64,000 nt of DNA from Escherichia coli (GTDB lineage: Bacteria > Pseudomonadota > Gammaproteobacteria > Enterobacterales > Enterobacteriaceae). Positions 1,941 to 62,754 of the stretch are shown one piece after another. The notes under the pieces were generated by a model. The model was given only the letters and a program-made list of their open reading frames with translations, was not told the DNA's origin and did not search any database. The DNA is taken from NCBI RefSeq assembly GCF_024502345.1, contig NZ_JALDNN010000001.1. The stretch is one strand, 5' to 3'. A program made the translations under genes and the position numbers. The first letter of the stretch is position 1. Every line of letters begins with the position of its first letter.

Positions 1941-1995
1941 GTCATGGATTAGCGACGTCTGATGACGTAATTTCTGCCTCGGAGGTATTTAAACA

Positions 1996-2694
1996 ATGAA
2001 TAAAATCCTGTTAGTTGATGATGACCGAGAGCTGACTTCCCTATTAAAGGAGCTGCTCGAGATGGAAGGCTTCAACGTGATTGTTGCCCACGATGGGGAA
2101 CAGGCGCTTGATCTTCTGGACGACAGCATTGATTTACTTTTGCTTGACGTAATGATGCCGAAGAAAAATGGTATCGACACATTAAAAGCACTTCGCCAGA
2201 CACACCAGACGCCTGTCATTATGTTGACGGCGCGCGGCAGTGAACTTGATCGCGTTCTCGGCCTTGAGCTGGGCGCAGATGACTATCTCCCGAAACCGTT
2301 TAATGATCGTGAGCTGGTGGCACGTATTCGCGCGATCCTGCGCCGTTCGCACTGGAGCGAGCAACAGCAAAACAACGACAACGGTTCACCGACACTGGAA
2401 GTTGATGCCTTAGTGCTGAATCCAGGCCGTCAGGAAGCCAGCTTCGACGGGCAAACGCTGGAGTTAACCGGTACTGAGTTTACCCTGCTCTATTTGCTGG
2501 CACAGCATCTGGGTCAGGTGGTTTCCCGTGAACATTTAAGCCAGGAAGTGCTGGGCAAACGCCTGACGCCTTTCGACCGCGCTATTGATATGCACATTTC
2601 CAACCTGCGTCGTAAACTGCCGGATCGTAAAGATGGTCACCCGTGGTTTAAAACCTTGCGTGGTCGCGGCTATCTGATGGTTTCTGCTTCATGA
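1996..2694 (+). CDS. cpxR: Response regulator CpxR, 232 aa
   Basis: ORF MNKILLVDDDRELTSLLKELLEMEGF..., OmpR-family receiver + winged helix; overlaps cpxA start by 4 bp. Confidence 0.95.
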   Translation: MNKILLVDDDRELTSLLKELLEMEGFNVIVAHDGEQALDLLDDSIDLLLLDVMMPKKNGIDTLKALRQTHQTPVIMLTARGSELDRVLGLELGADDYLPKPFNDRELVARIRAILRRSHWSEQQQNNDNGSPTLEVDALVLNPGRQEASFDGQTLELTGTEFTLLYLLAQHLGQVVSREHLSQEVLGKRLTPFDRAIDMHISNLRRKLPDRKDGHPWFKTLRGRGYLMVSAS

Positions 2695-4064
2695 TAGGCA
2701 GCTTAACCGCGCGCATCTTCGCCATCTTCTGGCTGACGCTGGCGCTGGTGTTGATGTTGGTTTTGATGTTACCCAAGCTCGATTCACGCCAGATGACCGA
2801 GCTTCTGGATAGCGAACAGCGTCAGGGGCTGATGATTGAGCAGCATGTCGAAGCGGAGCTGGCGAACGATCCGCCCAACGATTTAATGTGGTGGCGGCGT
2901 CTGTTCCGGGCGATTGATAAGTGGGCACCGCCAGGACAGCGTTTGTTATTGGTGACCACCGAAGGCCGCGTGATCGGCGCTGAACGCAGCGAAATGCAGA
3001 TCATTCGTAACTTTATTGGTCAGGCCGATAACGCCGATCATCCGCAGAAGAAAAAGTATGGCCGCGTGGAACTGGTCGGTCCGTTCTCCGTGCGTGATGG
3101 CGAAGATAATTACCAACTTTATCTGATTCGTCCGGCCAGCAGTTCTCAATCCGATTTCATTAACTTACTGTTTGACCGCCCGCTATTACTGCTGATTGTC
3201 ACCATGCTGGTCAGTACGCCGCTGCTGTTGTGGTTGGCCTGGAGTCTGGCAAAACCGGCGCGTAAGCTGAAAAATGCTGCCGATGAAGTTGCCCAGGGAA
3301 ACTTACGCCAGCACCCGGAACTGGAAGCGGGGCCACAGGAATTCCTTGCCGCAGGTGCCAGTTTTAACCAGATGGTCACCGCGCTGGAGCGCATGATGAC
3401 CTCTCAGCAGCGTCTGCTTTCTGATATCTCTCACGAGCTGCGCACCCCGCTGACGCGTCTGCAACTGGGTACGGCGTTACTGCGCCGTCGTAGCGGTGAA
3501 AGCAAGGAACTGGAGCGTATTGAAACCGAAGCGCAACGTCTGGACAGCATGATCAACGATCTGTTGGTGATGTCACGTAATCAGCAAAAAAACGCGCTGG
3601 TAAGCGAGACCATCAAAGCCAACCAGTTGTGGGGCGAAGTGCTGGATAACGCGGCGTTCGAAGCCGAGCAAATGGGCAAGTCGTTGACGGTTAACTTCCC
3701 GCCTGGGCCGTGGCCGCTGTACGGCAATCCGAACGCCCTGGAAAGTGCGCTGGAAAACATTGTTCGTAATGCTCTGCGTTATTCCCATACGAAGATTGAA
3801 GTGGGCTTTGCGGTAGATAAAGACGGTATCACCATTACGGTGGACGACGATGGTCCTGGCGTTAGCCCGGAAGATCGCGAACAGATTTTCCGTCCGTTCT
3901 ATCGGACCGATGAAGCACGCGATCGTGAATCTGGCGGTACAGGATTGGGGCTGGCGATTGTTGAAACCGCCATTCAGCAGCATCGTGGCTGGGTTAAAGC
4001 AGAAGACAGCCCGCTGGGCGGTTTACGGCTGGTGATTTGGTTGCCGCTGTATAAGCGGAGTTAA
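2691..4064 (+). CDS. cpxA: Sensor histidine kinase CpxA, 457 aa
   Basis: ORF with TM segments, HAMP, H-box SHELRTPLTRL and ATPase motifs. Confidence 0.95.
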   Translation: MIGSLTARIFAIFWLTLALVLMLVLMLPKLDSRQMTELLDSEQRQGLMIEQHVEAELANDPPNDLMWWRRLFRAIDKWAPPGQRLLLVTTEGRVIGAERSEMQIIRNFIGQADNADHPQKKKYGRVELVGPFSVRDGEDNYQLYLIRPASSSQSDFINLLFDRPLLLLIVTMLVSTPLLLWLAWSLAKPARKLKNAADEVAQGNLRQHPELEAGPQEFLAAGASFNQMVTALERMMTSQQRLLSDISHELRTPLTRLQLGTALLRRRSGESKELERIETEAQRLDSMINDLLVMSRNQQKNALVSETIKANQLWGEVLDNAAFEAEQMGKSLTVNFPPGPWPLYGNPNALESALENIVRNALRYSHTKIEVGFAVDKDGITITVDDDGPGVSPEDREQIFRPFYRTDEARDRESGGTGLGLAIVETAIQQHRGWVKAEDSPLGGLRLVIWLPLYKRS

Positions 4065-4074
4065 ACTCCGCATT

Positions 4075-4156
4075 TGTAGGCAGGATAAGGCGTTTACGCC
4101 GCATCCGGCATTTGAGCAGGATGCCTGATGCGACGCTGATAGCGTCTTATCAGGCC
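4075..4156. repeat. REP/BIME palindromic element
   Basis: Paired inverted REP-like units (ggataaggcgtttacgccgcatccggca / gcctgatgcgacgc...cttatcaggcctac) between cpxA and yiiM. Confidence 0.7.
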
Positions 4157-4169
4157 TACACTCCGGGGG

Positions 4170-7140: not shown

Positions 7141-8175
7141 ATGAGTAACGCGATTACGATGGGGATATTTTGGCATTTGATCGGCGCGGCCAGTGCAGCC
7201 TGTTTTTACGCTCCGTTCAAAAAAGTAAAAAAATGGTCATGGGAAACCATGTGGTCAGTCGGTGGGATTGTTTCGTGGATTATTCTGCCGTGGGCCATCA
7301 GCGCCCTGTTACTACCGAATTTCTGGGCGTATTACAGCTCGTTTAGTCTCTCTACGCTGCTGCCTGTTTTTCTGTTCGGCGCTATGTGGGGGATCGGTAA
7401 TATCAACTACGGCCTGACCATGCGTTATCTCGGCATGTCGATGGGAATTGGCATCGCCATTGGCATTACGTTGATTGTCGGTACGCTGATGACGCCAATT
7501 ATCAACGGCAATTTCGATGTGTTGATTAGCACCGAAGGCGGACGCATGACGTTGCTCGGCGTTCTGGTGGCGCTGATTGGCGTAGGGATTGTAACTCGAG
7601 CCGGGCAGTTGAAAGAGCGCAAGATGGGCATTAAAGCCGAAGAGTTCAATCTGAAAAAAGGACTGGTGCTGGCGGTGATGTGCGGCATTTTCTCTGCCGG
7701 GATGTCCTTTGCGATGAACGCCGCAAAACCGATGCATGAAGCCGCTGCCGCACTAGGCGTCGATCCACTGTATGTCGCTCTGCCAAGCTATGTTGTCATC
7801 ATGGGCGGCGGCGCGATCATTAACCTCGGTTTCTGTTTTATTCGTCTGGCAAAAGTGAAGGATTTGTCGCTAAAAGCCGACTTCTCGCTGGCAAAACCGC
7901 TGATCATTCACAATGTGTTACTCTCGGCACTGGGCGGGTTGATGTGGTATCTGCAATTCTTTTTCTATGCCTGGGGCCACGCCCGCATTCCGGCGCAGTA
8001 TGACTACATCAGTTGGATGCTGCATATGAGTTTCTATGTATTGTGCGGCGGTATCGTCGGGCTGGTGCTGAAAGAGTGGAACAATGCAGGACGCCGTCCG
8101 GTAACGGTGTTGAGCCTCGGTTGTGTGGTGATTATTGTCGCCGCTAACATCGTCGGCATCGGCATGGCGAATTAA
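7141..8175 (+). CDS. rhaT: L-rhamnose:H+ symporter, 344 aa
   Basis: [32 protein letters not shown]..., 10-TM permease; convergent with rhaR. Confidence 0.95.
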
Positions 8176-9020
8176 TCTTTCTGCGAATTGAGATGGCGCC
8201 ACTGGCTGGGCGTCATCCCGGTTTCCCGGGTAAACACCACCGAAAAATAGTTACTATCTTCAAAGCCACATTCGGTCGAAATATCACTGATTAACAGGCG
8301 GCTATGCTGGAGAAGATATTGCGCATGACACACTCTGACCTGCCGCAGATATTGATTGATGGTCATTCCAGTCTGCTGGCGAAATTGCTGACGCAAAACG
8401 CGCTCACTGCACGATGCCTCATCACAAAATTTATCCAGCGCAAAGGGACTTTTCAGGCTAGCCGCCAACCGGGTAATCAGCTTATCCAGCAACGTTTCGC
8501 TGGATGTTGGCGGCAACGAATCACTGGTGTAACGATGGCGATTCAGCAACATCACCAACTGCCCGAACAGCAACTCTGCCATTTCGTTAGCAAACGGCAC
8601 ATGCTGACTACTTTCATGCTCAAGCTGACCGATAACCTGCCGCGCCTGTGCCATCCCCATGCTACCTAAGCGCCAGTGTGGTTGCCCTGCGCTGACGCTA
8701 AATCCCGGAATCGCCCCCTGCCAGTCAAGATTCAGCTTCAGCCGCTCCGGGCAATAAATAATATTCTGCAAAACCAGATCGTTAACGGAAGCGTAGGAGT
8801 GTTTATCGTCAGCATGAATGTAAAAGAGATCGCCACGGGTAATGCGATAAGGGCGATCGTTGAGTACATGCAGACCATTACCGCGCCAGACAATCACCAG
8901 CTCACAAAAATCATGTGTATGTTCAGCAAAGACATCTTGCGGATAACGGTCAGCCACAGCGACTGCCTGCTGGTCGCTGGCAAAAAAATCATCTTTGAGA
9001 AGTTTTAACTGATGCGCCAC
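8172..9020 (-). CDS. rhaR: AraC-family activator RhaR, 282 aa from GTG start (a 312-aa form from ATG at 9110 is also possible)
   Basis: ORF track extends to 9194; the GTG at 9018-9020 gives [17 protein letters not shown]..., the RhaR N-terminus as I recall it, and sits 74 nt downstream of the rhaS stop. Confidence 0.85.
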
Positions 9021-9093
9021 CGTGGCTACCTCGGCCAGAGAACGAAGTTGATTATTCGCAATATGGCGTACAAATACGTTGAGAAGATTCGCG

Positions 9094-9930
9094 TTATTGC
9101 AGAAAACCATCCCGTCCCTGACGAATATCACGCGGTGACCAGTTAAACTCTCGGCGAAAAAGCGTCGAAAAGTGGTTACTGTCGCTGAATCCACAGCGAT
9201 AGGCGATGTCAGTAACGCTGGCCTCGCTGTGGCGTAGCAGATGTCGGGCTTTCATCAGTCGCAGGCGATTCAGGTATCGCTGAGGCGTCAGTCCCGTTTG
9301 CTGCTTAAGCTGCCGATGTAGCGTACGCAGTGAAAGAGAAAATTGATCCGCCACGGCATCCCAATTCACCTCATCGGCAAAATGGTCCTCCAGCCAGGCC
9401 AGAAGCAAGTTGAGACGTGATGCGCTGTTTTCCAGGTTCTCCTGCAAACTGCTTTTACGCAGCAAGAGCAGTAATTGCATAAACAAGATCTCGCGACTGG
9501 CGGTCGAGGGTAAATCATTTACCCCTTCCTGCTGTTCCATCTGTGCAACCAGCTGTCGCACCTGCTGCAATACGCTGTGGTTAACGCGCCAGTGGGAAGG
9601 ATACTGTCCGTCCTGCTCTTGTGGCAGCAACTGATTCAGCCCGGCGAGAAACTGAAATCGATCCGGCGAGCGATACAGCACATTAGTCAGACACAGATTA
9701 TCGGTATGTTCATACAGATGCCGATCATGGTCGCGCACAAAACAGACCGTGCCACCGGTGATGGTATAGGGCTGCCCATTAAACACATGAATACCCGTGC
9801 CATGTTCGACAATCACAATTTCATGAAAATCATGATGATGTTCAGGAAAATCCGCCTGCGGGAGCCGGGGTTCTATCGCCACGGACGCGTTACCAGACGG
9901 AAAAAAATCCACACTATGTAATACGGTCAT
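9094..9930 (-). CDS. rhaS: AraC-family activator RhaS, 278 aa
   Basis: [44 protein letters not shown]..., cupin + HTH. Confidence 0.95.
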
Positions 9931-12943
<3,013 letters not shown>

Positions 12944-12947
12944 ACAC

Positions 12948-13190
12948 TGCCGGATGCGGCACAAGTGCCTTATCCGGCCTACAGGTCGGCAACAGTTTTA
13001 GGCCTGATAAGACGCGACATCGCATCAGGCATTGATTGCCGGATGCGGCACAAGTGCCTTATCCGGCCTACAGGTCGGCAATAGTTGTAGGCCTGATAAG
13101 ACGCGACAGCGTCGCATCAGGCATTGATTGCCGGATGCGGCACGAGCGCCTTATCCGGCCTACGGGTCGTGCATCCGACAACACCGAATT
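12948..13190. repeat. REP/BIME cluster, roughly 100-bp unit present in about 2.5 tandem copies
   Basis: Unit ccggatgcggcacaagtgccttatccggcctacaggtcggcaa...gtaggcctgataagacgcgac...gcatcaggcattgatt repeated between rhaA and rhaD. Confidence 0.75.
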
Positions 13191-13206
13191 TACAGGAACA
13201 CAGAAC

Positions 13207-14031
13207 ATGCAAAATATTACCCAGTCCTGGTTTGTCCAGGGAATGATTAAAGCCACCTCCGACGCCTGGCTGAAAGGCTGGGACGAGCGCAACGGCGGCA
13301 ACCTGACGCTACGCCTGGATGACGCCGATATCGCACCATATCACGACAATTTCCACCAACAACCGCGCTATATCCCGCTCAGCCAGCCCATGCCTTTACT
13401 GGCAAATACACCGTTTATTGTCACCGGCTCGGGCAAATTCTTCCGTAACGTCCAGCTTGATCCTGCGGCTAACTTAGGCATCGTAAAAGTCGACAGCGAC
13501 GGCGCGGGCTACCACATTCTTTGGGGGTTAACCAACGAAGCCGTTCCCACTTCTGAACTTCCGGCTCACTTCCTTTCCCACTGCGAGCGCATTAAAGCCA
13601 CCAACAGTAAAGATCGGGTGATCATGCACTGCCACGCCACCAACCTGATCGCCCTCACCTATGTACTTGAAAACGACACCGCGGTCTTCACTCGCCAACT
13701 GTGGGAAGGCAGCACCGAGTGTCTGGTGGTATTCCCGGATGGCGTTGGCATTCTGCCGTGGATGGTACCCGGCACGGACGAAATCGGCCAGGCAACTGCC
13801 CAAGAGATGCAAAAACATTCGCTGGTGTTGTGGCCCTTCCACGGTGTGTTCGGTTCCGGACCGACGCTGGATGAAACCTTTGGTTTGATAGATACCGCAG
13901 AGAAATCAGCGGAAGTATTAGTGAAGGTTTATTCGATGGGCGGCATGAAACAGACTATCAGCCGTGAAGAGTTGATAGCGCTCGGCCAGCGTTTCGGCGT
14001 TACACCACTCGCCAGTGCGCTGGCGCTGTAA
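13207..14031 (+). CDS. rhaD: Rhamnulose-1-phosphate aldolase, 274 aa
   Basis: Internal Met [24 protein letters not shown] at 13207; the upstream part of ORF 13036..14031 reads through REP repeats and is not coding. Confidence 0.95.
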
Positions 14032-14040
14032 GGAGCAAAC

Positions 14041-14355
14041 ATGATCCGCAAAGCCTTTGTCATGCAGGTAAACCCCGACGCCCACGAAGAGTATCAGCGT
14101 CGGCATAACCCCATCTGGCCGGAACTGGAAGCAGTGCTGAAATCTCACGGTGCGCATAACTACGCCATCTATCTCGACAAAGCGCGTAATCTGCTGTTTG
14201 CCATGGTAGAGATTGAATCTGAAGAACGCTGGAATGCGGTTGCCAGTACTGATGTTTGCCAACGTTGGTGGAAATATATGACCGATGTTATGCCCGCTAA
14301 CCCGGATAACAGCCCGGTGAGTAGCGAGCTGCAAGAAGTGTTTTACCTGCCTTAA
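14041..14355 (+). CDS. rhaM: L-rhamnose mutarotase, 104 aa
   Basis: [49 protein letters not shown]... Confidence 0.9.
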
Positions 14356-14395: not shown

Positions 14396-15811
14396 TCAGA
14401 AGAAGTATTTAAAGCGAACGCGTGCGCCGTAACGGTCATCAGTATCATCACCGTGTTTTTTATCACCGTCGCTATCCAGAATGGAGTAATACGTCCCGAG
14501 GTAAATATTAAAGTTCTCCATATCCATCACATTAGCGAACTGATAAGACGCATGAATGGTGTGAATGGAGTACGTCCCTTCATCATCAATCCAGCAGTCG
14601 TTATCACAAACTACACCGCTGAATTCATCAATCTTATTGTGCGCGTAGATATAACCGAGCTCGAAACGTTTCCACAGCGCGTTAATCCCGGCAGTGAAAT
14701 CTTTCTCATTATTAGCATCTAAATAGGCGGTATTAAGATTAACCACAATGCCATTGTCCGGATCCGTTTTCAGGCCGTTCCAGGTCATGCTCATCCCATA
14801 GCCGGTACGATCGGACTGATCGACAAAATTACCCTTGCTATCGGTATAACCATAAGCATTATTTACCACGTTCGCTTCCATCGCTGCGGAAACGGTGAAT
14901 TCTTCCGTCGGCGACCAGGCAATTACTGGGCGCAGATAAGCAACATTTTTCTGCTGCTCCATATCGCGTCCATGATAATTACCGTCATTATATAAAGATG
15001 TTCCGTCTTCAAGTAACGTGTTTAATTCAAAATACCAGTTATCGAGTTGTTTGCTGACGAGGAAATTACCGCCAGCGTTAGAGCGCCCGCGGCCCTCTTT
15101 CATCATATAGATATAACCGCTGCCATCGTCATAAAGATCGTTCGCAGTATTACCGGAATGTTCAACAAAGGTATCCTGATTCAGCGGGAACATATCGTAG
15201 GCTTCAAAACGGCCTACTTTGACCTTCCAGTCGTTTTCTTTGCCAAAGAAGAATACCGCATCATCGATATTTACTGAACCGTGCATATCACCCAGCGGTT
15301 GTGCGGAGAACCCGGAGAAATAACCGTTGTCCATCTTTCGCATACCGTCAAAACCTAACAGAATACGACCATTGAGATTCCACTGTTCATTAGTGGGATC
15401 GCTATTCACATCAGCGTTGGTCATTGCCAGCAGGCCATGATTACTTTCCGCATCCATATTAAATTCTACGTCGCCGTAGATTTTTAAATCGCCATAACCT
15501 GAAAGCAAAAGATTAGGTGAGGTGGCATTTTTCTTTGCAGATTCCGCCGTTGCCTGTCCATTTACCGGCGTATTGCCCTGAGCGGCCTTAATTTCGCGGA
15601 TCTCAGCGGCTTGTTGTGTCTGCAGCTGTTTAACCTGGCTCTCTGCTTTTGCCGCCCGCATTTCTGCCGCTTCCAGGCGTTCTTCCAGCAATGCCATGCG
15701 TTGTTCCAGCAATGCCATGCGTTGTTCCAGCGTTAAATGCTGTGTTTTTGCCATACCGGTACTACATGCCAATAATAAACCGATGGCTAAAGATAATGTC
15801 GATTTTTTCAT
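14396..15811 (-). CDS. Putative outer-membrane sugar porin (ScrY/OprB-like beta-barrel) with signal peptide and N-terminal coiled-coil extension, 471 aa
   Basis: N-terminus MKKSTLSLAIGLLLACSTGMA (signal peptide), then heptad-rich LEQRMALLEQRMALLEERLEAAEMRAAKAESQVKQLQ, then Y/G/N/D-rich alternating segments and C-terminal ...RVRFKYFF typical of OM beta-barrels; SD aggga 9 nt upstream of ATG. Family assignment is from sequence features only. Confidence 0.7.
   Translation of the reverse strand: MKKSTLSLAIGLLLACSTGMAKTQHLTLEQRMALLEQRMALLEERLEAAEMRAAKAESQVKQLQTQQAAEIREIKAAQGNTPVNGQATAESAKKNATSPNLLLSGYGDLKIYGDVEFNMDAESNHGLLAMTNADVNSDPTNEQWNLNGRILLGFDGMRKMDNGYFSGFSAQPLGDMHGSVNIDDAVFFFGKENDWKVKVGRFEAYDMFPLNQDTFVEHSGNTANDLYDDGSGYIYMMKEGRGRSNAGGNFLVSKQLDNWYFELNTLLEDGTSLYNDGNYHGRDMEQQKNVAYLRPVIAWSPTEEFTVSAAMEANVVNNAYGYTDSKGNFVDQSDRTGYGMSMTWNGLKTDPDNGIVVNLNTAYLDANNEKDFTAGINALWKRFELGYIYAHNKIDEFSGVVCDNDCWIDDEGTYSIHTIHASYQFANVMDMENFNIYLGTYYSILDSDGDKKHGDDTDDRYGARVRFKYFF
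15685..15726 (-). repeat. Perfect 21-bp tandem duplication inside the porin coiled-coil region (encodes LEQRMAL twice)
   Basis: ccagcaatgccatgcgttgtt occurs twice consecutively (15685-15705 and 15706-15726), in frame. Confidence 0.9.
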
Positions 15812-23289: not shown

Positions 23290-26200
23290 ATGCAGGTCAG
23301 CAGAAGGCAGTTCTTTAAGATCTGCGCTGGCGGTATGGCAGGCACCACGGCAGCGGCACTGGGTTTTGCACCCAGCGTAGCACTCGCGGAAACTCGGCAG
23401 TATAAACTGCTGCGCACCCGCGAAACCCGTAATACCTGCACCTATTGTTCCGTAGGCTGTGGGCTGTTGATGTACAGCCTCGGTGACGGAGCAAAAAACG
23501 CCAAAGCATCTATCTTCCATATCGAAGGCGATCCGGATCACCCGGTCAACCGCGGTGCACTTTGTCCGAAAGGCGCTGGCCTGGTGGATTTCATCCACTC
23601 CGAAAGCCGTCTGAAGTTTCCGGAATACCGTGCGCCAGGTTCTGATAAATGGCAGCAAATCAGTTGGGAAGAGGCGTTTGATCGCATCGCCAAACTGATG
23701 AAAGAAGACCGCGATGCTAACTACATTGCGCAAAACGCCGAAGGCGTGACTGTTAACCGCTGGCTCTCCACCGGGATGCTGTGTGCTTCCGCGTCGAGTA
23801 ACGAAACCGGCTATTTAACGCAAAAATTCTCCCGCGCGCTGGGTATGCTCGCGGTCGACAACCAGGCGCGTGTCTGACACGGACCAACGGTAGCAAGTCT
23901 TGCTCCAACATTTGGTCGCGGTGCGATGACCAACCACTGGGTCGACATCAAGAACGCCAACCTCGTCGTGGTGATGGGCGGTAACGCCGCTGAAGCTCAC
24001 CCGGTCGGGTTCCGCTGGGCGATGGAAGCCAAAATTCACAACGGCGCGAAGCTGATTGTGATCGATCCTCGCTTTACGCGTACGGCGGCGGTAGCTGACT
24101 ACTATGCCCCTATTCGTTCCGGTACTGACATTGCTTTCCTGTCAGGCGTATTGCTGTACCTGCTGAACAATGAAAAATTCAACCGCGAATACACCGAAGC
24201 CTATACCAACGCCAGCCTGATAGTGCGTGAGGATTACGGCTTTGAAGATGGCCTGTTCACCGGCTACGACGCGGAAAAACGCAAGTACGATAAATCCTCC
24301 TGGACTTATGAACTGGACGAAAACGGCTTCGCCAAACGCGATACCACGCTGCAACATCCGCGCTGCGTGTGGAACTTGCTGAAACAGCACGTTTCCCGCT
24401 ACACGCCAGATGTGGTTGAAAACATCTGTGGTACGCCAAAAGACGCGTTCCTGAAAGTCTGCGAATACATCGCAGAAACCAGTGCTCACGATAAAACTGC
24501 CTCGTTCCTGTATGCCCTCGGCTGGACGCAACACTCCGTTGGTGCGCAAAACATTCGTACGATGGCGATGATCCAGCTGCTGCTCGGCAATATGGGGATG
24601 GCCGGCGGCGGCGTTAACGCCCTGCGCGGTCACTCCAATATTCAGGGGCTGACGGACCTGGGGCTACTGTCGCAGAGTCTGCCAGGTTACATGACGCTGC
24701 CAAGCGAGAAGCAGACCGATCTGCAAACCTACCTTACCGCCAACACGCCAAAACCGCTGCTGGAAGGCCAGGTAAACTACTGGGGCAACTACCCGAAATT
24801 CTTCGTCTCTATGATGAAGGCCTTCTTTGGTGATAAAGCGACGGCGGAAAATAGCTGGGGCTTTGACTGGTTGCCGAAGTGGGATAAAGGCTACGACGTC
24901 CTGCAATACTTCGAGATGATGAAAGAAGGCAAGGTCAATGGCTATATCTGCCAGGGCTTTAACCCTGTTGCCTCATTCCCGAACAAAAACAAAGTGATCG
25001 GTTGTCTGTCGAAACTGAAGTTCCTCGTCACCATCGACCCGCTGAACACTGAAACCTCTAACTTCTGGCAGAACCACGGTGAGCTGAACGAAGTTGACTC
25101 GTCGAAGATCCAGACCGAAGTGTTCCGTCTGCCATCGACCTGCTTCGCAGAAGAGAACGGTTCAATCGTTAACTCAGGTCGCTGGTTGCAGTGGCACTGG
25201 AAAGGTGCGGACGCCCCGGGGATTGCGCTGACTGACGGTGAGATCCTCTCCGGTATCTTCCTGCGCTTGCGCAAGATGTATGCCGAACAGGGTGGCGCGA
25301 ACCCGGATCAGGTGCTGAACATGACCTGGAACTACGCCATTCCGCATGAGCCGAAGTCGGAAGAAGTAGCGATGGAGAGCAACGGTAAGGCGCTGGCCGA
25401 TATTACCGATCCGGCAACCGGTGCGGTTATCGTCAAGAAAGGCCAACAACTTAGCTCGTTCGCCCAATTGCGCGATGACGGTACAACCTCCTGTGGCTGC
25501 TGGATTTTCGCCGGTAGCTGGACGCCGGAAGGCAACCAGATGGCGCGTCGTGATAACGCCGATCCGTCTGGCCTCGGTAACACGCTGGGCTGGGCATGGG
25601 CATGGCCGCTTAACCGCCGCATTCTGTATAACCGCGCCTCCGCAGATCCGCAGGGTAACCCGTGGGATCCGAAGCGTCAGTTGCTGAAATGGGACGGCAC
25701 TAAGTGGACCGGCTGGGATATTCCGGACTACAGCGCAGCGCCTCCGGATAGCGGCGTCGGGCCGTTTATCATGCAGCAGGAAGGCATGGGGCGTCTGTTT
25801 GCCCTCGATAAGATGGCGGAAGGTCCGTTCCCGGAACACTACGAGCCGTTTGAAACGCCGCTGGGAACTAACCCGCTGCATCCAAACGTTATCTCGAACC
25901 CGGCTGCACGTATCTTTAAAGACGACGCCGAAGCATTGGGTAAAGCCGATAAGTTCCCGTATGTCGGAACCACCTATCGTCTGACCGAGCACTTCCACTA
26001 CTGGACCAAACACGCGCTGTTGAACGCGATTTTGCAACCAGAGCAGTTTGTGGAAATCGGGGAGTCGCTGGCGAATAAACTTGGCATTGCCCAGGGCGAT
26101 ACCGTGAAAGTCTCCTCCAACCGTGGCTATATCAAAGCCAAAGCGGTGGTGACCAAACGTATTCGCACGCTGAAAGCGAACGGCAAAGATATCGATACCA

Positions 26201-28984: not shown

Positions 28985-29095
28985 GCGTAAGATTGCCTGA
29001 TGCGCTGCGCTTATCAGGCCTACCAATAAACTTCAATATATTGAATTTGCATGACTTTGTAGGCCTGATAAGGCGTTCACGCCGCATCCGGCATG
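28985..29095. repeat. REP/BIME palindromic element
   Basis: gcctgatgcgctgcgcttatcaggcctac ... gtaggcctgataaggcgttcacgccgcatccggca between fdhE and yiiF. Confidence 0.7.
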
Positions 29096-49061: not shown

Positions 49062-49145
<84 letters not shown>

Positions 49146-52213: not shown

Positions 52214-52379
52214 TGTTTAATCCTTTTGGTTTAAACCAGATGAAGCATCTTACGCTTACGCCAAAAAAGAAAGCAATTAACGGTGTATGACTTTGCAGAT
52301 AATTGTGACAAAGCTCTCTATTGACGTAATCCCAGACTTATAAGGGAGATACTCGCATTGGTGTGCGCTCACGACAGGT

Positions 52380-52412
52380 AAAAAAAAACCTGCCAGCGAT
52401 GGCAGGTTTTTT
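52380..52412 (-). terminator. Rho-independent terminator downstream of typA
   Basis: cctgccagcgatggcagg hairpin flanked by a 9-nt A-run and 6-nt T-run. Confidence 0.6.
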
Positions 52413-52429
52413 ATAACTAAAAAACGAAA

Positions 52430-54253
52430 TTAATCGTCTTTCGGTGCGCGGTTAGCGCGACGACGATCGTTTTCCGTCAGGTGACGTTTACGAATACGGA
52501 TAGAGGTCGGAGTCACTTCTACCAGTTCGTCATCATCGATGAACTCCAGAGCTTGTTCCAGAGTCATGCGGATAGGCGGAACCAGAACAACAGCTTCGTC
52601 AGTACCGGAAGCACGCATGTTGGTCAGTTTCTTACCGGTCAGGCAGTTTACAGTCAGGTCGTTAGAGCGGCTATGAATACCGATAATCTGACCTTCGTAA
52701 ACTTCTGCACCGTGACCGAGGAACAGCTTACCGCGATCCTGCAGACCGAACAGCGCGAACGCGACCGCTTTACCCTGACCGTTAGAGATCAGTACACCGT
52801 TCTGACGCTGACCCACTTCGCCCGGACGTACGTCGTCGTAGTGGCTGAAGGTGGAGTACAGCAGACCAGTACCGGAAGTCATGGTCATGAACTCAGAACG
52901 GAAGCCAATCAGACCACGGCTTGGGATCACGTAGTCGAGACGTACGCGGCCTTTACCGTCTGGATTCATGTTTTTCAGGTCGCCTTTACGTTCGCCCAGC
53001 GCCTGCATTACAGAACCCTGATGCTGTTCTTCAACGTCCAGAGTCACGTTTTCATATGGCTCTTGTTTACGACCGTCGATTTCACGGAAGATAACTTTCG
53101 GACGGGATACCGCCAGTTCGAAACCTTCACGACGCATGTTTTCGATCAGAACAGACAGGTGTAGTTCGCCACGACCAGAAACGCGGAACGCATCAGCGTC
53201 TTCGGTTTCTTCTACGCGCAGCGCAACGTTGTGTACCAGTTCTTTGTTCAGACGATCCAGGATCTGACGAGACGTTACGAACTTACCTTCTTTACCGCAG
53301 AACGGCGAGGTGTTAACGCAGAAGAACATAGAAACGGTCGGCTCATCAACGGAGAGTGCCGGCAGCGCTTCAACGTTTTGCGTGTCGCAAACGGTGTCAG
53401 AAATGTTCAGTTCGCCAAGGCCCGTGATCGCAACGATATCGCCAGCTTCCGCCAGATCGGTTTCGATACGTTCCAGACCGAGGTGGCCCAGCACTTTACC
53501 GACTTTCGCGTTGCGGGTTTTGCCTTCGCTATCGATGATAGTAACCTGCTGGTTCGGCTTCACTTTACCGCGCTTGATGCGGCCAATGCCGATAACGCCA
53601 ACATAGCTGTTGTAATCGAGCTGAGAAATCTGCATCTGGAACGGACCGTCAAGGTCAACGTCCGGCGCAGGAACGTGGTCAACAATCGCCTGGTACAGCG
53701 GGGTCATGTCTTCCGCCATATCTTCGTGGTCCAGACCCGCGATACCGTTCAGCGCAGAAGCGTAAACGATCGGGAAGTCCAGCTGCTCGTCGGTCGCGTC
53801 GAGGTTAACGAACAGATCGAATACCTGATCCACAACCCAATCAGGACGCGCGCCAGGGCGGTCAACTTTGTTGATAACAACAATCGGCTTCAGGCCGTAA
53901 GCAAACGCTTTTTTGGTTACGAAGCGCGTTTGCGGCATCGGGCCGTCAAATGCGTCAACCACCAGCAGCACTGAGTCTACCATGGACATTACACGTTCAA
54001 CTTCACCACCGAAGTCGGCGTGCCCCGGGGTATCAACGATGTTGATACGGTAATCATTCCATTTGATAGCGGTGTTTTTCGCGAGGATGGTAATCCCACG
54101 CTCTTTCTCCAAATCGTTGGAGTCCATCACGCGCTCTTGGGTTTCGGCACGAGAGTCGAACGTACCGGATTGTTGGAGCAGCTTGTCTACCAGGGTGGTT
54201 TTACCATGGTCTACGTGCGCGATGATGGCGATATTACGCAATTTTTCGATCAC
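52430..54253 (-). CDS. typA: Ribosome-associated translational GTPase TypA/BipA, 607 aa
   Basis: [35 protein letters not shown]... (G1 motif AHVDHGKTT). Confidence 0.95.
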
Positions 54254-54399
54254 AACTTTGCCTCAGGCATTAGAAATAGCGCGTTATTGTACACGGATTA
54301 ATCGCACTACAAAACAGGATCACAAACATCCTCCGCAAACAAGTATTGCAGAGTCCCTTTGTGATCGCTTTCACGGAGCATAAAAAGGGTTATCCAAAG

Positions 54400-54545
54400 G
54401 TCATTGCACCAATATAGTGCTTAATGTTTCCATTGAAGCACTATATTGGTGCAACATTCACATCGTGGTGCAGCCCTTTTGCACGATGGTGCGCATGATA
54501 ACGCCTTTTAGGGGCAATTTAAAAGTTGGCACAGTTTTCGCTTTA
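54400..54545 (+). promoter_or_regulatory. glnA control region: NtrC enhancer sites and sigma-54 promoter glnAp2
   Basis: NtrC-type dyads tgcaccaatatagtgc, gcactatattggtgca, gtggtgcag...tgcacgatggtgcgc; sigma-54 element ttggcacagttttcgct (GG at 54528-54529, GC at 54540-54541, N10 spacing). Confidence 0.75.
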
Positions 54546-58924: not shown

Positions 58925-59040
58925 TCTTTGTTCATGCCGGATGCGGCGTGAACGCCTTATCCGGTCTACAAAAGCAATATTTTCAACAGGTTTTGTAGGC
59001 CTGATAAGCGTAGCGCATCAGGCAATCTTGTTCTCAGCAC
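58925..59040. repeat. REP/BIME palindromic element
   Basis: gccggatgcggcgtgaacgccttatccggtctac ... gtaggcctgataagcgtagcgcatcaggca between yshB and hemN. Confidence 0.7.
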
Positions 59041-61159: not shown

Positions 61160-61228
61160 AATGGTTCGTCTTTTAGCCGTTTTATTCAGTATAGATTTGC
61201 GGCGGAATCTAACAGAAAGCAAGCAAAG

Positions 61229-61470
61229 AAAAAAGGCGACAGATTACTCTGTCGCCTTTTTTCCTGACTCATAACCCTTAACGGGTCTTACAATCCTTGC
61301 AGGCCGCCAACACACCCTGTTTTTCCATTAGCCGGAACAATCCGTGTTGATTCCATTTCCGTTTAATTACGTCTCCGGACGTTTGTCTTCCTGACAATCC
61401 TCTGTCTTCGCCTCCTGGCGCTCCTGACCCTCATCCTGAGTCATTGTTCCTGTTAGCGTCCTCGCTCTAT
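61229..61470 (-). ncRNA. csrC: CsrA-sequestering sRNA CsrC
   Basis: Minus strand carries many GGA motifs in short hairpin contexts (caggatgagggtcaggagcgccaggaggcgaagacagaggattgtcaggaaga...) and ends in a GC hairpin plus U-run (plus-strand aaaaaaggcgacagattactctgtcgcctttttt); location between yihI and engB as in K-12. Ends approximate. Confidence 0.75.
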
Positions 61471-62496: not shown

Positions 62497-62607
62497 AATA
62501 AAAAACGCCCCAGTCATTACTGACTGGGGCGGCTAAAATATTCAGCCAAATCCGATTACGTGAAGTAAAAGGTCTGAAAGATAGAACATCTTACCTCTGT
62601 ACCCTAC
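62497..62607 (-). ncRNA. spf: Spot 42 sRNA
   Basis: Reverse complement reads gtagggtacagaggtaagatgttctatctttcagaccttttacttcacgtaatcggatttggctgaatattttagccgccccagtcagtaatgactggggcgttttttatt, the Spot 42 sequence with its terminator. Confidence 0.88.
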
Positions 62608-62754
62608 GCGACTAACTTTACTCTTTTTTGTTCAGTTCAGAAAGCACTTTTTGTAATTTTTTTTCAGTTGTTGCATAGGAATTTCTAATAGCCATCACAA
62701 AACGTGACAGCTTATGTTGCTTACTTACGAAAAAAGGGCATGTTCAGGCGAATC

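Follow-up and report, generated by a model that had tools for sequence, protein, structure and literature searches.

A very probable BIME-2 array in the rhaA–rhaD gap of Escherichia coli and the variation of its unit number

The repeat block between rhaA and rhaD in the window (the whole stretch of 64 kb of DNA analysed here) is very probably a BIME-2, that is, a non-coding series of alternating Y and Z2 REP palindromes in the transcribed rhaA–rhaD gap of the rhaBAD(M) operon. It occupies most of this 263-bp gap and is located entirely between the stop codon of rhaA and the start codon of rhaD. As rhaB overlaps with rhaA and only 9 nt separate rhaD from rhaM, the rhaA–rhaD gap is the sole real gap in the operon. 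Descriptions of REP and BIME elements go back to the 1980s. Both the kind of element and its presence at this locus are already known, since the orthologue in the K-12 strain W3110 is catalogued as ‘BIMEs2 3543085-3543486, 401 bp, rhaA>-rhaD>’ (Sutormin et al. 2019, Table DS3, PMC6379681). A full-text literature search found no paper that treats the rhaA–rhaD REPs in its main text, rhaA is absent from the RepRanger supplements and the annotation of NC_000913.3 lists no REP features. What we add here is descriptive, namely a ladder of alleles with approximate frequencies, the alternative occupants of the gap and a picture of the same gap across genera.

Structure and assignment of the array

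The positions of the repeats and of the surrounding rha genes are collected in Table 1. Using Tandem Repeats Finder we obtained a single array at 12948–13169 (period 89, 2.5 copies, 93% matches, score 384), and a score of 80 or more is reached by just one further array in the whole window. A repeat search resolved three copies spaced 89 and 92 bp apart and in register with each other, together with the inverted-repeat arms of the palindromes. By strict pattern matching the REPs span 12949–13163 in the order Y, inverted Z2, Y, inverted Z2, Y. Typing as Y or Z2 was done with strict exact patterns and a unit-by-unit display, and the consensus sequences used for it are those which we take to be the ones of Bachellier and Gilson. 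The sequence-only reading of this region had proposed a unit of roughly 100 bp present about 2.5 times between 12948 and 13190. Its copy number and its start agree with the present analysis, whereas the unit is in fact 89 or 92 bp long and the repeat already stops at 13163–13169, so that the end of the proposed span falls into the unique flank.

Table 1: Positions of the rha genes, the REP palindromes and their linkers in the window.
Feature	Position	Strand	Remarks
rhaR	8172–9194	-	mechanical ORF; NCBIfam equivalog models, RhaR profile aligns from residue 60
rhaS	9094–9930	-	NCBIfam equivalog models
rhaB	10218–11687	+	NCBIfam equivalog models
rhaA (L-rhamnose isomerase)	11684–12943	+	TAA stop 12941–12943; NCBIfam TIGR01748/NF002203, 824 and 810 bits
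Spacer between rhaA stop and first REP	12944–12948	+	ACACT, 5 nt; identical in all 13 alleles inspected
Y REP copy 1	12949–12982	+	GCCGGATGCGGCACAAGTGCCTTATCCGGCCTAC; CTAC foot at 3' end on + strand; exact pattern match
15-nt linker	12983–12997	+	AGGTCGGCAACAGTT; between facing CTAC and GTAG feet
Z2 REP copy 1	12998–13030	-	inverted relative to Y; degenerate, TTAG foot for GTAG and loop shorter by 3 nt
7-nt linker	13031–13037	+	ATTGATT; holds TGA 13033–13035 and the first bases of TTG 13036–13038, with which the false rhaD ORF opens
False N-terminal extension of rhaD	13036–13206	+	57 codons, through Y copy 2, Z2 copy 2 and Y copy 3
Y REP copy 2	13038–13071	+	identical to Y copy 1
15-nt linker	13072–13086	+	AGGTCGGCAATAGTT
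Z2 REP copy 2	13087–13122	-	intact; GTAGGCCTGATAAGACGCGACAGCGTCGCATCAGGC on + strand
7-nt linker	13123–13129	+	ATTGATT
Y REP copy 3	13130–13163	+	terminal half unit, loop variant ACGAGC
Unique 3' flank	13164–13206	+	rhaD ribosome-binding site AGGA at 13194–13197
rhaD (rhamnulose-1-phosphate aldolase)	13207–14031	+	274 aa; NCBIfam NF002963, 479 bits, profile 1–273 of 274
rhaM	14041–14355	+	NCBIfam equivalog models

The five palindromes show the properties of REPs, as they are GC-rich, about 35 nt long (33–36 nt), extragenic and have dispersed copies, and the GTAG/CTAC foot is present in four of them with TTAG instead in Z2 copy 1. For the REP tail motif CTTATCMGGCCTAC we counted 12 occurrences at five loci in the window compared to 0.01 expected from shuffled sequences, and five of these 12 are part of the rhaA–rhaD array. 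Facing CTAC/GTAG feet are joined by the 15-nt linkers (AGGTCGGCAAYAGTT) and facing heads by the 7-nt linkers (ATTGATT). In the literature a BIME-2 is made up of y and z2 REPs that are inverted relative to each other, are repeated in tandem several times with short linkers between them and differ in copy number from strain to strain (PMC3333891; PMC1187871). The alternation of y and z2, the 2.5 tandem units, the short linkers and a unit number that differs between strains were all found for the rhaA–rhaD array. The array is not a BIME-1, as it lacks both a long L linker and an IHF consensus (WATCAANNNNTTR, without a match in the array or anywhere in the 64-kb window). A CRISPR-like array was rejected as well, as there are no unique spacers. 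The identification as a REP/BIME block, which had been made from the letters of the sequence, is therefore upheld by the alternating Y and Z2 REPs, by their 7- and 15-nt linkers and by the Rfam model for naRNA4, which matches from end to end. Beyond the last REP, an inverted-repeat search showed that GCATCCGACAA at 13171–13181 in the 3' flank is complementary to the left arm of Y and, judged from its sequence, it may be a remnant half-REP. The final ~20 nt of the gap before rhaD are conserved across genera.

The BIME-2 of K-12 (MG1655/W3110) shares with the array of the window its position, the 5-nt spacer, the Y/Z2 units, the linkers, the 3' flank and the ribosome-binding site of rhaD, but the K-12 allele consists of nine REPs in 4.5 units with a gap of 450 bp while there are five REPs in 2.5 units in the 263-bp gap of the window. 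The TTAG foot of the first Z2 in the window is present in none of the 12 alleles compared with it. REP325, the BIME-2 between yjdM and yjdN, is also composed of tandem Y and Z2 units but has six units of 77 bp with ‘U’ spacers and is located elsewhere in the genome.

The repeats also influence how rhaD is called. A mechanical ORF at 13036–14031 with a TTG start codes for 331 aa in frame with the 274-aa RhaD, and the sequence-only reading had regarded its N-terminal part as a false extension created by the repeats, which we can confirm. That the long ORF is genuine and the strain makes a RhaD with 57 additional N-terminal residues is hardly conceivable, even if the frame is open from TTG 13036: the alignment to the RhaD profile begins with residue 1 at ATG 13207, the AGGA ribosome-binding site is found 10 nt upstream of this ATG, PGAP places the start of rhaD at the same ATG in the 12 fetched E. 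coli genomes, the extension is made of REP sequence and the sequence upstream of rhaD is unrelated in other genera. A true coding extension was thus rejected on the basis of the profile start, the ribosome-binding site and the REP content. As the 92-bp unit is not a multiple of three, the extension would furthermore change with the copy number. ORF callers that choose the longest frame would assign to RhaD a false extension of 57 residues.

Occupants of the gap in Escherichia and other Enterobacteriaceae

With a 751-nt query across the array, the rha locus was hit in essentially every one of the 5,426 complete E. coli genomes, the matched span differing between them, and 13 alleles were fetched, aligned and dissected unit by unit. 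Compared across strains, the alleles differ by whole 92-bp Y+Z2 units. Gaps of 82 or 92 bp contain one REP (a single Y), the gap of 174 bp contains three (O157:H7), those of 263, 266 or 276 bp contain five (window; PapM-32-1), that of 358 bp seven, those of 450 or 460 bp nine (K-12; Nissle) and that of 542 bp eleven (O55:H7). The copy-number variation suspected from the window alone is thus real, the number ranging from 1–11 REPs among complete E. coli genomes to 22 or more in a cryptic-clade Escherichia. In Escherichia sp. MOD1-EC7003 at least 11 Y and at least 11 Z2 REPs extend over more than 1 kb, and the contig then ends in foreign sequence within a Z2.

All units keep the register and have a length of 92 bp except for the first unit of the window and PapM-32-1, which measures 89 bp because its Z2 loop has lost 3 nt, a deletion relative to K-12 that is common to these two alleles. 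Two haplotypes of the 3' flank that differ by 10 nt could be distinguished, with gaps of 82, 174, 266, 358, 450 and 542 bp on one of them and of 92, 276 and 460 bp on the other. As the copy number varies on both flank haplotypes, the array must have expanded and contracted repeatedly. Among the K-12-like alleles specific internal units have been lost, for example in the 266-bp allele, which corresponds to that of K-12 minus units 2 and 3. Such losses of internal units are the pattern made by unequal recombination or slippage between direct repeats. For the gain as well as the loss of units we would assume either replication slippage or unequal recombination of the direct repeats, or else the action of the REP-associated transposase TnpA(REP).

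In order to estimate allele frequencies, only the unique coding flanks were used as query and an evenly spaced sample of 59 out of 5,339 genomes was evaluated. Gaps of 82/92 bp were present in 15 of the 59 genomes, followed by 447–460 bp (14 genomes), 262–276 bp (11), 241 bp (9) and 174 bp (8), with one genome each for 413 bp and 542 bp. Since about a quarter of the sampled E. coli have a single REP, rhamnose use does not need a multi-unit array.

The array is also not the only possible occupant of the gap in E. coli. In the 241-bp allele a single Y REP precedes a palindromic element of another kind, which measures ~160 bp and is rich in CCCTCACCC/CCCTCTCCC and GGGAGAGGG/GGGTGAGGG motifs, and this element was found in 828 of the 5,426 complete E. 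coli genomes (~15%). In strain IAI39 the transposase gene of IS1397 is located between rhaA and rhaD, inserted into the loop of a single Y REP with a 3-bp duplication of AGC. According to the references listed in PMC2817692, the loop of REPs is a recognised target preference of IS1397.

We also scanned other genera using one genome per species with RhaD, which gave 80 loci from other Enterobacteriaceae with both genes being present in 76 of them. This set took in one cryptic-clade Escherichia and no E. coli, Shigella, E. fergusonii or E. albertii. Gap lengths between rhaA and rhaD in the 76 loci range from 15 to 466 bp with a median of 115 bp. The gap folds with −15 kcal/mol or lower in 70 of the 76, z is −3 or lower against shuffled sequences in 53, and the first paired base is located at most 15 nt from the stop codon in 72. 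Folding weaker than −1 kcal/mol was found in four of the 76, one of them with the gap of 15 nt, which likewise shows that a multi-unit array is not needed. Regarding their content, 33 gaps are REP-like, 23 belong to the CCCTCTCCC/GGGTGAGGG type, three contain both and 17 contain something else, and at least three unrelated families of palindromic repeats occupy the gap across these 76 loci. It is therefore common for the gap behind rhaA to be structured and filled with repeats, with a filler that differs by lineage.

The window itself stems from a sparsely sampled Escherichia coli-like lineage, as the closest complete RefSeq E. coli shows 98.6% identity over 25 kb and the exact RhaA protein is found on one public contig only, which breaks 34 nt past the rhaA stop. 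The 3' part of rhaA and the 5' part of rhaD form haplotype blocks that are unusually divergent and reassort, and the breakpoint between them falls on the array.

Possible roles of the array

The plus-strand RNA from 12930 to 13215 folds with −125 kcal/mol compared to −92.9 ± 5.0 kcal/mol for shuffled sequences (z −6.45). For the single hairpins Y1, Z2-1, Y2, Z2-2 and Y3, energies of −20, −13, −20, −21.9 and −19.5 kcal/mol were calculated with z between −3.5 and −5.7 (−4.5 for Y copy 1), and the alternative pairing of a Z2 with the next Y gives hairpins of −38 and −48.5 kcal/mol. No terminator-like site was found in 12600–13500 and an intrinsic (Rho-independent) terminator was rejected, as the hairpins are not followed by a U-tract. 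The array shows the anatomy of an mRNA stabiliser, being transcribed within the operon and forming stable stem-loops that lack a U-tract. In general, mRNA 3' ends are set and protected by REP hairpins (PMC6061677), and in analogy to this it is plausible that the array stabilises mRNA 3' ends within the rhaBAD transcript. Hairpins without a U-tract would let RNA polymerase through, and rhaD and rhaM would be expressed by read-through from PrhaBAD. The same hairpins would act as barriers to 3'-to-5' exonucleases (PNPase, RNase II), and if they do, the rhaBA segment or its decay intermediates should outlast the rhaD–rhaM segment. The REPs of malE–malF and hisJ–hisQ, classical mRNA stabilisers (Newbury et al. 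1987, cited in PMC6061677), resemble the rha array in being hairpins without a U-tract in a transcribed gap between cistrons of a single sugar or transport operon, but effects on mRNA stability and protein ratio have been measured there, whereas the rha array is known from its sequence and is larger and variable in size.

Two further effects on the RNA level might be added to the proposed stabilisation. The array may attenuate downstream transcription through Rho; Rho-dependent termination is facilitated by REPs according to Espeli 2001 as quoted in PMC2817692. The other one concerns the end of rhaA, where the first REP stem (12949) begins 5 nt past the stop codon (12943) and hence within the distance of at most 15 nt given by Liang et al. 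2015 (PMC12306157). According to PMC12306157, Liang et al. 2015 reported that a REP reduces the translation of the gene preceding it if it is less than 16 nt away from the stop codon. As the first hairpin is in the range reported to impede terminating ribosomes, it may lower the output of RhaA. Such a ribosome-impeding mechanism at the rhaA stop had not been raised in the sequence-only reading.

Published RNA-seq data of strain LF82 call for some caution here. The RPKM values of 376 vs 39 for rhaA, 452 vs 65 for rhaB and 554 vs 303 for rhaD (PMC6379400, Table 4) come from a table with inconsistent column labels and from data whose strand specificity is not established, and because of this we take them as a caution and not as a refutation. 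They correspond to a 1.8-fold change of rhaD compared to a 7 to 10-fold change of rhaA and rhaB, with a high basal level of rhaD (PMC6379400). In LF82 rhaD is uncoupled from rhaBA, which is predicted neither by a simple upstream stabiliser nor by a simple downstream attenuator. The discrepancy could be caused by a separate source of RNA in the rhaD region, by antisense reads or by a mapping artefact.

A promoter in the array or its 3' flank that drives rhaD and rhaM independently of PrhaBAD would be one such explanation, but we consider it improbable. No convincing promoter was found in the array region, and the only sense-strand match is a weak promoter-like sequence (9 of 12 positions) at 13189–13218, which could not give a translatable rhaD mRNA because it overlaps the rhaD start codon. 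Fusions of lacZ to the region upstream of rhaD were also reportedly without promoter activity in the work of Moralejo and colleagues from 1993, which counts against an internal promoter. What speaks for it is the rhaD RPKM in the low condition of LF82, which is 5 to 8 times that of rhaA or rhaB (PMC6379400), in a data set that has the ambiguities in labels and strand mentioned above. Even more improbable is a locus that encodes naRNA4-like, nucleoid-associated and HU-binding small RNAs as REP325 does. The Rfam model RF02564 (naRNA4), which was built on Y-l-Z2 units of REP325 (PMC4550694), gives two minus-strand matches that exceed the gathering score of 59.5, at 13090–13160 (73.3 bits, corresponding to Z2 copy 2 and Y copy 3) and at 13001–13068 (64.1 bits), covering model positions 1–77 of 77, and naRNA4 itself is a Y-l-Z2 unit (PMC4550694). 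However, these matches are antisense to rhaBAD, the scores on the plus (mRNA-sense) strand of 50.8 and 50.1 bits are below the gathering score, and the model in effect detects any pair of Y and Z2, as a pair at 4079–4156 scores 78.6 bits. Evidence of a discrete RNA from the rha locus was not found. We therefore read the RF02564 matches, from their sequence, as detection of the BIME-2 unit structure and not as evidence for a small RNA gene. A dedicated naRNA4 gene was rejected, as the locus is rhaA–rhaD and not yjdM–yjdN and the match reflects the shared unit structure.

Two other readings deserve more weight than these. For the first one, in which the array acts mainly on the DNA level as a strong, transcription-independent site of gyrase binding and cleavage that adjusts local supercoiling, with RNA effects being incidental, we see an even chance. 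By orthology with K-12 the array is probably a gyrase site: for the rhaA–rhaD BIME-2 of K-12/W3110, cleavage sites are listed as Cfx 4, RifCfx 2, Micro 1 and Oxo 0 (PMC6379681, Table DS3), that is, cleavage under three poison conditions with two sites persisting in the presence of rifampicin, and an enrichment of cleavage sites, mostly within y REPs, is a property of the BIME-2 class. On the other hand only a subset of BIME-2 elements is cleaved, and the sites were mapped in the K-12/W3110 orthologue with its nine REPs. The BIME-2 elements of sucB–sucC and tldD–yhdP belong to the same class, have an intra- or inter-operon position and carry their cleavage sites mainly in y REPs, but they have more of them (6/4/0/5 for sucB–sucC against 4/2/1/0 for rha in K-12). 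A role as gyrase site is also compatible with roles on the RNA level. The array could as well be a neutral or selfish passenger, a non-autonomous repeat spread and amplified by TnpA(REP) or recombination in the only gap that the operon tolerates and without a measurable effect on rha, which we hold to be possible but do not favour. It would explain the range from 1 to 11 REPs without obvious constraint among E. coli with an intact rhamnose locus, the unrelated repeat families in the gap of other genera together with some almost gapless species, the copy decaying in the window (TTAG foot, loop deletion) and the further insertions that REPs draw, as IS1397 in IAI39. Against a mere passenger stands the structure retained in the 70 of 76 and the stop-proximal pairing in the 72 of 76 other Enterobacteriaceae, a conservation that would also be expected from selection for a hairpin. 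Furthermore, REPs at other loci were shown by experiment to affect mRNA decay, translation and termination (PMC6061677, and as far as reported in PMC12306157 and PMC2817692).

Use and meaning of the allele series

For practical work two consequences follow from the alleles described here, as short-read assemblies break at the array and as the 92-bp ladder represents a simple polymorphism for strain typing that can be sized by PCR. Going beyond the proposed stabilisation of mRNA 3' ends, one may speculate that the rhaA/rhaD junction is selected for a stable RNA structure immediately behind the rhaA stop codon and that the number of BIME-2 units is an evolvable dial for the ratio of RhaB/RhaA to RhaD/RhaM, which we regard as unlikely. 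The natural series of 1, 3, 5, 7, 9 and 11 REPs at one position of the same operon is well suited for studying how the copy number of a BIME relates to expression ratios within an operon.

Other occupants of the rhaA–rhaD gap

At the position orthologous to window 12944-13206, where the alternating Y and Z2 REPs of the BIME-2 array lie, E. coli strain 67-1 carries a 241-bp allele (545-785 of its rha locus, L008) made up of a single Y REP followed by a palindromic element of about 160 bp with many CCCTCACCC/CCCTCTCCC and GGGAGAGGG/GGGTGAGGG motifs. The element has a possible resemblance to 'Box C'. Of 5,426 E. coli genomes, 828 carry the 241-bp allele, and the same type of palindromic element is also what lies between rhaA and rhaD in Pseudocitrobacter, Enterobacter, Lelliottia and Kosakonia. 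A different occupant is found in E. coli IAI39 (1984-3500 of its locus, L094), in which IS1397, a member of the IS3 family, has inserted exactly into the loop of the gap's only Y REP, with a 3-bp AGC duplication at this loop, leaving the rhaBAD promoter and rhaD about 1.4 kb apart.

In Escherichia sp. MOD1-EC7003 (L014:1-1078) the same BIME-2 has grown to at least 11 Y and at least 11 Z2 copies over more than 1 kb, which exceeds the range of 'two to twelve' given for BIME-2. At its start the contig has about 60 nt of foreign sequence, joined within the loop of a Z2; this stretch is not IS1397 and may be the terminus of a different insertion sequence. The gap of Superficieibacter electus measures 466 bp (L044:2035-2500) and holds about nine REP-like hairpins, which all point the same way and recur about every 49 bp; this mode of amplification differs from that of the alternating BIME-2.

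Lineage, array decay and neighbourhood in the window

Among 5,426 complete RefSeq E. coli genomes the closest to window 1-25000 reaches only 98.6% over 25 kb and the top identity at the rha junction is 98.4%; the window DNA belongs to an under-sampled lineage. Its exact RhaA protein is encoded on one public contig only, Logan contig ERR14375843_79825, which stops 34 nt past the rhaA stop codon and within the first REP. The rhaA–rhaD array breaks short-read assemblies.

Within the window array, Z2 copy 1 (12998-13030) is decaying: its foot reads TTAG instead of GTAG, a form absent from the 12 other alleles compared, its loop lacks 3 nt, a loss shared with PapM-32-1, and its hairpin is weakened (-13 vs -21.9 kcal/mol). 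Cleavage by TnpA(REP) needs GTAG (PMC3333891).

Elsewhere in the window three REP pairs and one single REP were found (table below). The Rfam models naRNA4 and ES036 match such pairs, which shows that ordinary pairs of REPs are picked up by these 'sRNA' families. The gathering-level Rfam matches to a SECIS element, STnc370, ES222, CsrC and Spot 42 are consistent with the 4.05-4.10 Mb region of K-12 in reverse orientation. Unlike in K-12, where frvA follows rhaM and the porin gene is absent from this position, a carbohydrate porin gene lies downstream of rhaM in the window, and a tandem repeat was observed inside it.

Features of the window outside the rhaA–rhaD gap
Feature	Position	Strand	Remark
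REP element	4076-4159		naRNA4 match of 78.6 bits for the pair at 4079-4156
Carbohydrate porin gene	14396-15811	minus	
21-bp tandem repeat	15673-15731	minus	2.8 copies, 94% identity
SECIS element	23872-23930		in formate dehydrogenase alpha-subunit gene
REP element	29010-29072		pair at ~29016-29058 matched by ES036 (CssrF)
REP element	49087-49100		
STnc370	52377-52445		
ES222	54335-54442		
REP element	58956-59008		
CsrC	61217-61470		
Spot 42	62499-62617		

RNA levels and coding flanks across the BIME

RNA-seq of E. coli LF82 gave RPKM values of 376/39 for rhaA, 452/65 for rhaB and 554/303 for rhaD (PMC6379400, Table 4, whose column labels are at odds with the text of that paper). In LF82 the rhaD RNA level is uncoupled from that of rhaBA across the BIME, as read from these contradictorily labelled columns.

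For the coding flanks, 300 nt on each side were compared between E. coli strains, and identity ranged from 89 to 100% at the rhaA 3' end (12644-12943) and from 93 to 100% at the rhaD 5' end (13207-13506). These flanks show unusual diversity and mosaicism within E. coli. Left and right haplotypes reassort, with strain 67-1 joining a K-12-like rhaA end to an IAI39-like rhaD start, and therefore the BIME coincides with a recombination breakpoint.
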